Under the pieces are notes generated by a model that worked only from the letters and a program-made list of their open reading frames with translations, had not been told where the DNA came from and did no database searches. A program made the position numbers and the translations under genes. 64,000 bases of DNA from the NCBI RefSeq assembly GCF_003018255.1, contig NZ_CP027440.1, one strand, 5' to 3'. This document shows, one piece after another, positions 13,152 through 15,090 of the stretch. The stretch is from Escherichia coli. GTDB taxonomy: Bacteria > Pseudomonadota > Gammaproteobacteria > Enterobacterales > Enterobacteriaceae. Positions within the stretch are counted from its first letter, which is position 1; each line of letters begins with the position of its first letter.

Positions 13152-13505
13152 TTATCTCTATTCCGTAGCGATTCGCTACCACTTATTTAAAGATAAGACG
13201 TCCTTTTCAGAGTGCAAATTTCACAACCACTTATTTGATTTATAACAACTTTCACAAGCACGTAATTTTGTCGCAAAATGACACATTTTTATCTCATCGC
13301 GTTTTTTTAATCATAAGAGCGGCTTATGGATAATTATTGGAGATGGTATCTATTCTCGCTAAGAAGCTGTTGCAGGATATTACCAAACGCGGGTCTGCCC
13401 ACGTCAGTTCACTAAGCTTAGTCCCACGTAGCGAAAATATGGCAGCCGCCATACGCCGCGTTAATTCTATGCAATATGATGTCTATACCCAGACGGAGGT
13501 CAGTA

Positions 13506-13679
13506 ATGGCAAACCATCGAGGCGGTTCCGGCAATTTTGCAGAAGACCGCGAAAGAGCATCAGAAGCAGGTAAAAAAGGTGGACAGCACAGCGGGGGTAA
13601 TTTCAAAAATGACCCGCAGCGCGCATCTGAAGCAGGTAAAAAAGGTGGCAAGAGCAGTCACGGTAAAAGCGACAACTAG
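13506..13679 (+). CDS. ymdF: stress-induced KGG-repeat small protein YmdF (57 aa)
   Basis: Track ORF 13476..13679 trimmed to ATG at 13506 with SD ggaggt; MANHRGGSGNFAEDRERASEAGKKGG... with duplicated ASEAGKKGG motif. Confidence 0.85.
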   Translation: MANHRGGSGNFAEDRERASEAGKKGGQHSGGNFKNDPQRASEAGKKGGKSSHGKSDN

Positions 13680-13734
13680 CCGGGCTAATCAATGACGCAT
13701 GCATTTTTGTCTGTAGCTCGTCAAAACGCCATCA

Positions 13735-13760
13735 CCGCCGGTTACCCCGGCGGTTTTCTG
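13735..13760. terminator. stem-loop terminator between ymdF and rutG
   Basis: ccgccgg-ttacc-ccggcgg hairpin followed by ttttctgttt on the plus strand. Confidence 0.6.
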
Positions 13761-13761
13761 T

Positions 13762-15090
13762 TTATGGCTCCTGATGAACAACTTCTGGCGGTGGAACGTC
13801 AACCAACCTTCTGCTTAACAACGCATTGAGTAAAATCGCGCCAAAGGTGGCTGTACCGATCCCTCCCAACGTAAAACCGCCCAGTGTGAGAGCAAAATCA
13901 CCCGCACCCAGCACTAAGGTTACTGCGACCATAATCAAATTACCGTTCTGGCTTAAATCCACACTGTTTTGTACCCAGATCCGTGCGCCTGCGACGGCAA
14001 TCAGCCCGAACACAACAATTGATGCACCACCAATCACCGCGGCCGGAATAGTATGGATCAGCGCGCCAAATTTCGGCGAAAAGCCCAACAGCATGGCGAT
14101 GACGGCAGCGGCAACAAACACCAGCGTCGAGTAGACTTTTGTCACGGCCATCACACCAATATTCTCGGCGTAGGTGGTTACGCCGCTACCGCCGACAGAG
14201 CCAGAAAGCATCGTCGCCAGCCCATCGCCTACGAATGCCCGCCCCATATACGGGTCCATATTGCGTCCGGTCATCCCGGCGACCGCCTTGAGATGACCTA
14301 AGTTTTCCGCCACCAGAATCACCGCCACGGGCGCAATCAGCATCATTGCCTGACCATTAAAAGCAGGAGTGGAAAAATGTGGCAGACCGAACCAGGCAGC
14401 ATGGCTGACGAGAGTAAAATCGACGGCTTTTCCCAGCCCTAAAACGTTGGTCATCACGCCATACAGCAGACAGGCGACAATTAATCCTACGAGAATCAAT
14501 AATCGCTGGATCATGCCACGGGTAAATACGGCCACCAGCCCAATACACAGCACCGTCATTACCGCCATCCAGCTATCAAAGGCCGAAGCCGATACATTTT
14601 TCACTGCGATAGGCGCTAAGTTCAGGCCAATCGCCATCACTACCGCACCTGTCACAACCGGTGGCATTAGTCGTTCAATCCAGCGCGTACCGATTTTCAT
14701 CACCACCAGGCCAATGACGGTATAAACCAGCCCACAGGCGATAATCCCGCCCAGCGCGATGCTGATATTCGGATTAATTCCCTGACCATTAAAGCCCGTC
14801 GCGGCAATCACCACGCCGACAAAAGCCGCGCTGGAACCGAGATAACTGGGCACGTGCCCGCCGGTAATAAAGAAAAACAGTAACGTGCCGATCCCCGACA
14901 TTAAAATGGAAAGATTGGGATCCAGCCCCATCAGAATTGGCATTAACACCGTCGCGCCAAACATCGCCACCGCGTGTTGAACGCCCATTACTGCCGTTTG
15001 AGCAAACGGCAATCGTTCATCCGGCGCGACCACGCCGCTCTCTGTAGAGGTCGATTTTAACTGCCAGTGAGGAAAACCGAACATTGCCAT
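13762..15090 (-). CDS. rutG: pyrimidine (uracil) permease RutG (442 aa, NCS2 family)
   Basis: Track ORF trimmed to ATG at 15090 (MAMFGFPHWQLK) preceded by GGAG SD; polytopic membrane protein. Confidence 0.9.
   Translation of the reverse strand: MAMFGFPHWQLKSTSTESGVVAPDERLPFAQTAVMGVQHAVAMFGATVLMPILMGLDPNLSILMSGIGTLLFFFITGGHVPSYLGSSAAFVGVVIAATGFNGQGINPNISIALGGIIACGLVYTVIGLVVMKIGTRWIERLMPPVVTGAVVMAIGLNLAPIAVKNVSASAFDSWMAVMTVLCIGLVAVFTRGMIQRLLILVGLIVACLLYGVMTNVLGLGKAVDFTLVSHAAWFGLPHFSTPAFNGQAMMLIAPVAVILVAENLGHLKAVAGMTGRNMDPYMGRAFVGDGLATMLSGSVGGSGVTTYAENIGVMAVTKVYSTLVFVAAAVIAMLLGFSPKFGALIHTIPAAVIGGASIVVFGLIAVAGARIWVQNSVDLSQNGNLIMVAVTLVLGAGDFALTLGGFTLGGIGTATFGAILLNALLSRRLVDVPPPEVVHQEP

Follow-up and report, generated by a model that had tools for sequence, protein, structure and literature searches.

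The stress gene ymdF of Escherichia coli contains two nearly identical copies of a short sequence within its coding region, which raises the questions of why the copies resemble each other so closely at the DNA level and whether the gene gains or loses copies among natural strains. A first-pass annotation of the window, that is, of the whole 64-kb stretch of E. coli DNA analysed here, had pointed to a near-perfect direct repeat of about 27 bp in ymdF that encodes a duplicated ASEAGKKGG motif, and both parts of this description hold. The first copy, R1 (13557-13582, plus strand; GCATCAGAAGCAGGTAAAAAAGGTGG), and the second, R2 (13623-13648, plus strand; GCATCTGAAGCAGGTAAAAAAGGTGG), were delimited by direct reading and by script, and they agree at 25 of 26 positions, the single mismatch being an A/T difference at repeat position 6, while the 27th bases are unlike (A versus C). 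They share an exact run of 20 nt (13563-13582 and 13629-13648) at an offset of 66 nt or 22 codons, and both lie inside the ymdF coding sequence, where each encodes ASEAGKKGG in the frame of the gene.

Two KGG motifs in a small stress protein

In-register comparison shows the 26-nt repeat to be the conserved core of a longer 66-nt tandem duplication, which corresponds to two 22-residue KGG motifs. Unit 1 (13530-13595, plus strand, codons 9-30; GNFAEDRERASEAGKKGGQHSG) and unit 2 (13596-13661, plus strand, codons 31-52; GNFKNDPQRASEAGKKGGKSSH) are identical at 45/66 nt and 15/22 aa, with 20/40 nt identical outside the core. The repeat is far above chance expectation: exact direct repeats of at least 14 nt within 300 nt occur at two loci in the window (ymdF and a REP/BIME array), and 50 shuffles gave 0.02 such 16-mers and 0 such 20-mers. 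The other locus (9001-9243) is a 101-bp tandem array of 2.4 copies with 95% matches and REP/BIME-like palindromic units, situated between an ORF ending at 8995 and minus-strand ORFs from 9250. The ymdF repeat went unreported by Tandem Repeats Finder (minimum score 30) and by a seed repeat search (seeds 7 and 9), which is a miss by the tools, the repeat itself being present. In the single-sequence minimum-free-energy fold, UCAGA of R1 (13560-13564) pairs with UCUGA of R2 (13626-13630), to which it is complementary through the single mismatch; this pairing was rejected because the R2 codon is not conserved between species, and it is probably fortuitous.

ymdF (13506-13679, plus strand, defined by its ORF and translation) encodes a general stress protein of 57 aa with two KGG repeats (MANHRGGSGNFAEDRERASEAGKKGGQHSGGNFKNDPQRASEAGKKGGKSSHGKSDN), which is identical to the K-12 product WP_001273658.1 in the RefSeq annotation. 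A Shine-Dalgarno sequence, GGAGG (13495-13499), lies 6 nt before the ATG at 13506; an upstream ATG at 13476, opening an ORF of 67 aa, was rejected as the start on account of this placement and of the MANHRGG with which all orthologues begin. Of 5,426 complete E. coli genomes, 5,416 have the homologous locus annotated by RefSeq as ymdF, 'con-10 family general stress protein' (10 genomes are without a match, and seven matches to the ymdF region fall on plasmid-labelled records). The gene sits between wrbA and rutG, the order agp-yccJ-wrbA-ymdF is common to E. coli, Salmonella, E. albertii and E. fergusonii, and wrbA is also found upstream of ymdF in Klebsiella, Enterobacter and Citrobacter. By its synteny with wrbA and its protein identity, the window gene is a member of an Enterobacteriaceae ymdF orthologue group.

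The Pfam KGG profile (PF10685, 'stress-induced bacterial acidophilic repeat motif') matches two stretches of the 57-aa protein (E 1.6e-18) at 67 bits against a cut-off of 20.4, the curated gathering score, and YmdF thus belongs to the family; an NCBIfam search of YmdF assigned no family. At 21.1% glycine and a GRAVY of -1.71, the 57-aa protein is a hydrophilin in composition, and the 35-aa form described below has 20.0% glycine and a GRAVY of -1.67; hydrophilins were reportedly defined by Garay-Arroyo et al. 2000 through more than about 6% glycine and a hydrophilicity index above 1. That definition is cited in PMC5437024. The C-terminus of YmdF, KSSHGKSDN, contains no GxxxxGK[ST]-like tail, which the profile match does not need. 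The Pfam description, in the form quoted in PMC9262955, places a Walker-A-like nucleotide-binding motif downstream of KGG, and a passage of the same paper notes that YmdF and YciG differ in this Walker-like motif. YmdF, YciG and STM1513 are presented as small, intrinsically disordered, RpoS-dependent KGG-repeat proteins, and RpoS-dependent expression of ymdF is reported in both E. coli and Salmonella, in passages of PMC7161692 and PMC5437024; in Salmonella, the protein itself has been seen by mass spectrometry (PMC5437024). E. coli K-12 with ymdF deleted is described as forming poor biofilms of impaired architecture and as more susceptible to peroxide, tobramycin and ciprofloxacin (PMC9262955).

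YciG (E. coli b1259), the paralogue of YmdF, is the closest system for comparison. Its two KGG motifs are also arranged in tandem with a period of 22 residues and differ little in sequence from those of YmdF (MAEHRGGSGNFAEDREKASDAGRKGGQHSGGNFKNDPQRASEAGKKGG...), PF10685 matches YciG twice, and the protein is described as a likewise sigma-S-regulated small hydrophilic protein (passages in PMC7161692 and PMC5437024). In contrast to YmdF, it carries a C-terminal QSGGNKSGKS tail, called a Walker-like motif in a passage of PMC9262955. Its gene is part of an operon, yciGFE. By contrast, ymdF is monocistronic and has an intrinsic terminator of its own, which a terminator scan placed at 13734-13764 on the plus strand (stem-loop 13734-13754; ACCGCCGG-TTACC-CCGGCGGT followed by a T-run) and whose stem is kept between species.

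Homogenisation of the repeat cores in Escherichia

Orthologues were sought in one genome per species with the conserved 5' end of ymdF as the query, which gave 95 Enterobacteriaceae matches, 91 of them full-length. Two KGG units with a 66-nt period are present in all 91 full-length orthologues and also in the paralogue yciG, and the duplication is ancient. One of the records retrieved, CACSKA010000011.1 (titled Chryseobacterium sp. 18061; L096), contains a ymdF of enterobacterial type. The encoded protein does not differ from that of Citrobacter sp. 18056 (L090), which comes from the same project, and the record looks like contamination or a mislabelled assembly.

The near-perfect DNA identity of the cores, on the other hand, is specific to Escherichia. 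Outside the genus, in 85 species, the two cores agree at 17-24 of 27 nt (mean 20.1), and the longest in-register exact run has a mean of 8.3 nt and a maximum of 17. Codon 23, in R1, is informative here. It encodes Arg in 84/85 of these species (CGT in 68, CGA in 12, CGC in 3 and CGG in 1), and in 7/7 Escherichia sequences (the window, E. albertii, E. whittamii and four E. coli or Escherichia sp. representatives) it is AAA (Lys), the same as the corresponding R2 codon of each. The only non-Escherichia lineage with Lys in R1 is one Citrobacter amalonaticus genome (L067), in which R1 has AAG and so does its own R2; the close relatives of this genome combine an R1 with CGT and an R2 with AAA or AAG. 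Two independent short templated conversions from R2 to R1, one in Escherichia and one in C. amalonaticus L067, would most likely account for this pattern. The step from CGT to AAA might in principle also have been made by three successive substitutions via CGA and AGA; CGA does occur at this codon in Citrobacter, and an AGA or AGG intermediate at R1 codon 23 was absent from every species scanned. The K-12 yciG cores, unlike those of ymdF, are unhomogenised (GCATCCGACGCAGGCCGTAAAGGCGGT versus GCATCTGAAGCGGGTAAAAAAGGCGGT) and keep Arg in repeat 1.

Homogenisation has gone further within E. coli. Its R2 reads GGT...GGT, in contrast to GGA and GGC or GGG in other Escherichia, and because these two further synonymous R2 sites match R1, the exact run reaches 20 nt in E. 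coli proper. About 130 complete genomes, such as JNEC-KY173 (L119:1684-1857), have TCA for TCT in R2 and hence a perfect 26/26 repeat, an allele that is a further homogenisation step within the species.

Near-identity of this kind might also have arisen without any conversion, through purifying selection on the nine amino acids combined with codon preference, in which case the deletion polymorphism described below would be incidental. ASEAG(K/R)KGG is indeed strictly conserved in both units over 91 species, even distant species share about 20 of the 27 core nucleotides, and most of the resemblance of the E. coli R2 to R1 (GCA TCT GAA GCA) is common to Salmonella and C. amalonaticus. However, unit 2 uses many synonymous codons for the same amino acids (entropy 1.3-1.7 bits), and since these codons vary across species, codon preference does not fix the core codons. 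Moreover, the replacement of Arg by Lys in R1 changes three bases and yields the very codon that R2 has, and in the one other lineage where R1 encodes Lys, AAG stands in both R1 and R2. We regard an origin by selection and codon preference as unlikely on this balance and favour templated homogenisation.

One-copy alleles and their origin

Two O157:H7 genomes align to a 361-nt query in two pieces, with a record span 67 nt below the query span, and the alignment of the window with O157:H7 F1273 and K-12 reveals an exact in-frame deletion of 66 bp. The segment missing from the one-copy allele is 13563-13628 on the plus strand, its register in the alignment being ambiguous at any point of the 20-nt identical run, up to 13583-13648. 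Both endpoints lie within the direct repeat, and one copy is lost together with the intervening sequence, as at a deletion hotspot. In the remaining hybrid copy, the left marker (TCA) is that of R1 and the right marker (GGC) that of R2, which places the crossover inside the 20-nt identical run. The product of the allele has 35 aa and one KGG motif (MANHRGGSGNFAEDRERASEAGKKGGKSSHGKSDN), and the KGG profile matches it in one stretch at 39 bits.

The one-unit deletion is carried by 346 of 5,426 complete E. coli genomes (6.4%, which is not a population frequency because heavily sequenced O157:H7 dominates the 346). Carriers were counted as genomes in which a 70-nt junction-specific query was covered to at least 80%; the spacer was found in 5,066 genomes, and the two groups add up to the 5,412 genomes matching the junction query. 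A 34-nt junction query, none of whose 28-mers matches a two-copy genome, retrieved 476 records, and 60 evenly spaced records among them suggest that about 346 are deletions and about 130 two-copy alleles with a perfect repeat. The carriers are mostly O157:H7, including Sakai, EDL933, EC4115 and TW14359, and the one-copy allele is stably fixed across the sampled O157:H7-type genomes. Assembly collapse was rejected as the source of the deletion, as the 346 are complete genomes from many laboratories and platforms, Sakai and EDL933 among them.

The first-pass annotation had expected slipped-strand expansion or contraction and had set an invariant copy number across strains as the outcome that would speak against it. 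Copy number does vary, with contraction in 346 of the 5,426 genomes, and the expectation of expansion was not borne out: the 34-nt unique-junction query, whose positive control found 476 records, detected no three-copy allele in the 5,426 genomes, and the exact 79-aa three-copy product is absent from a collection of about 15 billion proteins. The longer YmdF relatives retrieved have alternative starts or C-terminal frameshifts, and none is a triplication. Among the E. coli proteins, five have C-terminal frameshift extensions (P0117, P0097, P0090, P0041, P0060), and two are small slippage variants, one with an extra Lys in the AAAAAA run (AGKKKGG; P0056) and one with a duplicated Ala-Ser (ERASASEAG; P0063).

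Contraction is found in other species as well. The 35-aa form is present on 50 contigs of E. albertii (57-aa form on 643) and on 7 contigs of E. fergusonii (57-aa form on 288), and also among Shigella flexneri entries. In E. albertii and E. fergusonii, the one-copy genes occupy the syntenic position adjoining wrbA and have species-specific substitutions. The E. albertii product keeps GGT of R1 and GGC-GGC of R2, so its crossover lies in AAAAAAGG. Four guessed one-copy products for Salmonella and Klebsiella were absent from the protein collection, an absence that weakly suggests a confinement of contraction to the homogenised Escherichia repeats.

Within E. coli, the deletion is found on at least five flanking haplotypes (O157, AMSCJX02/CE0032f, 162.2/B379, XYEH3934 and HCP5S3_I2), which were distinguished by SNPs in the flanks and by whether an intergenic insert of 175 bp is present. 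Carriers of the AMSCJX02 type, 17 in number, are nested among two-copy genomes with 3.1-kb flanks that are 99.9% identical; the best non-self match of strain 162.2 is a two-copy genome, 100.0% identical over 3.3 kb; and the downstream flank of XYEH3934 is identical over 1.6 kb to that of the two-copy strain CUWW10. Could a single deletion event have been followed by the spread of the one-copy allele among lineages through homologous recombination? Every E. coli carrier examined encodes one and the same 35-aa protein (WP_001273654.1), there is hardly any variation in the flanks up to about 100 bp from the deletion on both sides, and no SNP separates the haplotypes from about 13471 to 13683; the import of a tract as long as about 210 bp would therefore be traceless. 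On the other hand, such a history needs four or more very short imports, each a separate event, into backgrounds in which the sequence next to the deletion is otherwise 99.9-100% identical to that of two-copy relatives, and the E. albertii and E. fergusonii alleles, with their own substitutions and, in E. albertii, a crossover elsewhere, must at least have arisen independently. Contraction is recurrent across these species, and very short recombination tracts could conceivably have spread one deletion allele within E. coli; a single origin for all of the alleles is improbable.

We therefore favour a joint reading, with a probability of roughly 85%, in which the repeat is the conserved core of two KGG motifs, was homogenised in Escherichia and is subject to recurrent, repeat-mediated deletion of one unit. 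According to this reading, the ancestral Arg codon of R1, CGN, would have been replaced by the Lys codon AAA of R2, a short templated conversion being the most likely route, and two further synonymous matches in E. coli proper would have lengthened the exact run to 20 nt. The close direct repeats would then misalign, most likely by RecA-independent replication slippage, and each misalignment would remove exactly one 66-nt unit in frame and leave a 35-aa YmdF with one KGG motif; the deletion would have arisen repeatedly and become fixed in the lineage represented by the sampled O157:H7-type genomes, and the short allele would be tolerated or functional.

Deletions between short, close direct repeats are RecA-independent and are attributed to replication misalignment. 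Albertini et al. 1982 reportedly dealt with such direct-repeat deletions in lacI, and Bzymek and Lovett 2001 are said to have ascribed RecA-independent deletion between direct repeats to misalignment during replication. Given that the ymdF deletion is repeat-mediated, its anatomy points to replication slippage as the probable mechanism; single-strand annealing after a break and unequal sister exchange are alternatives that would leave the same sequence. The missing three-copy alleles count against simple slippage, which should also yield duplications, usually more rarely. Like the classical direct-repeat deletion hotspots of lacI, ymdF combines a short repeat (20-26 nt) with a spacer of tens of bases, and its deletion takes one repeat and the spacer with a crossover inside the identical run. 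Unlike them, the ymdF deletion is in frame, removes a domain, is apparently tolerated and forms a natural polymorphism that is fixed in a major pathogen lineage.

A quite different interpretation would make the repeat a phase-variable contingency locus at which YmdF switches reversibly between long and short forms. Copy number does differ among strains with both forms in frame, and ymdF shares with phase-variable SSR loci a repeat-mediated length change in a coding region. Unlike those loci, however, it has two copies separated by a 40-nt unique spacer and no contiguous tract of short units (Tandem Repeats Finder reported no array), the change involves no frameshift, no expansions were seen in the 5,426 genomes, and the short allele is stable in O157:H7-type genomes. 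Nor can slippage restore the long form, since a gene that has lost one copy contains no repeat any more. The contingency interpretation is effectively refuted, and the ymdF repeat is not a reversible contingency locus.

The first-pass annotation had also remarked that the repeat produces a look-alike antisense ORF, and this ORF is present (13418-13651, minus strand; 77 aa with a TTG start) and contains PPFLPASDA twice, in mirror of the repeat. That it is a real overlapping gene for whose product the repeat is maintained is hardly credible, for although the frame is open over 77-79 codons in the window and in many relatives, it starts with TTG, matches no Pfam family, varies from 13 to 126 codons with unconserved ends over 90 species, has its wobble positions at those of ymdF, being the antisense frame that typically is open by accident, and varies in a pattern that tracks the codon periodicity of ymdF. 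It is a shadow ORF, a mechanical by-product of the repeat that is unsupported as a gene.

Multi-repeat proteins of the KGG/con-10 family include Bacillus GsiB and Neurospora con-10. Members share the repeat motif of YmdF and vary in copy number, and the proteins retrieved here include a 91-aa KGG homologue with three repeats (P0070). A passage in PMC9262955 likewise describes PA2190 of P. aeruginosa as about twice the length of PA2146, likely by a duplication event. In the wider family, copy number differs between genes and species, whereas in ymdF it varies within one species at one orthologous locus. The locus offers a natural example of slight homogenisation, from CGT (Arg) to AAA (Lys), that lengthens a repeat and is followed by recurrent loss of a domain, and O157:H7 and some other lineages, with their naturally half-length YmdF, provide a ready-made test of whether one KGG motif suffices. 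An annotated gene, a curated protein repeat and textbook instability make this an ordinary feature of an already-known kind; the practical consequences are modest and the current understanding of repeat instability is unchanged. We found no discussion of the recurrent deletion, the Escherichia homogenisation or the synonymous island described below in the titles, abstracts and passages retrieved from the ymdF literature. For annotation, the one-copy allele is a real gene of 35 aa. The Sakai reference record leaves the 35-aa ymdF unannotated, and other records name the one-copy allele inconsistently.

A synonymous-constraint island and the surroundings of ymdF

The left part of R1 overlaps a 21-nt island (13551-13571, plus strand, codons 16-22; GAAAGAGCATCAGAAGCAGGT, read as GAA AGA GCA TCA GAA GCA GGT), delimited by per-codon entropy, that shows almost no synonymous variation over the 91 Enterobacteriaceae orthologues. 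Its mean entropy is 0.24 bits, compared with 1.30 for the equivalent codons of unit 2 and 0.88 for all unconstrained codons (permutation p ~0.0003), and its rare AGA codon is kept in 88/91 orthologues. RNAalifold over 90 species leaves the island essentially unpaired and gives no conserved structure that would explain it, and Rfam returned no family at the gathering score over the region, the lone sub-threshold hit being an sroD-like match on the ymdF terminator (E 0.07; 22 bits versus a cut-off of 50). What we take to be the seeds of the known sRNAs RyhB, DsrA, RybB and OmrA/B match the island over 6-7 nt only, which is no evidence of a relation. All observed deletions leave the island intact, with crossovers to its right. 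We tentatively suggest, as a possibility rather than an expectation, that the island might be an RNA-level element within ymdF, such as a binding site for an sRNA or for Hfq (ARN-rich) or a decay determinant, and that the frozen R1 might then template an occasional conversion of R2.

Upstream of ymdF, a sigma-70 consensus scan reported no site directly before the gene; CTATAC (13483-13488), picked out by eye, may be a -10-like element. A palindrome in the wrbA-ymdF intergenic region (13412-13421; CTAAGCTTAG) is conserved across most of the 90 species aligned and might serve one of the divergent genes as an operator. In CUWW10 (L002:1748-2445), an IS1A is inserted in the wrbA-ymdF interval, about 90 bp before the start of ymdF, where it presumably displaces the promoter region. 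In O157:H7 Sakai (L009:1-2550), the wrbA site is where the lambda-like prophage Sp5 ends, about 420 bp upstream of ymdF in its one-copy form; prophage and deletion are unrelated, since the deletion is also present in O157 F1273, where wrbA is intact. Downstream, K-12 (L003), 162.2 (L006), B379 (L115) and XYEH3934 (L117) have an extra stretch of about 175 bp between the ymdF terminator region and rutG, which is absent from the window and from O157 and whose insertion point is about 13739-13743. A query containing this insert matched 24-47 places per genome, which identifies it as a dispersed REP-type element.
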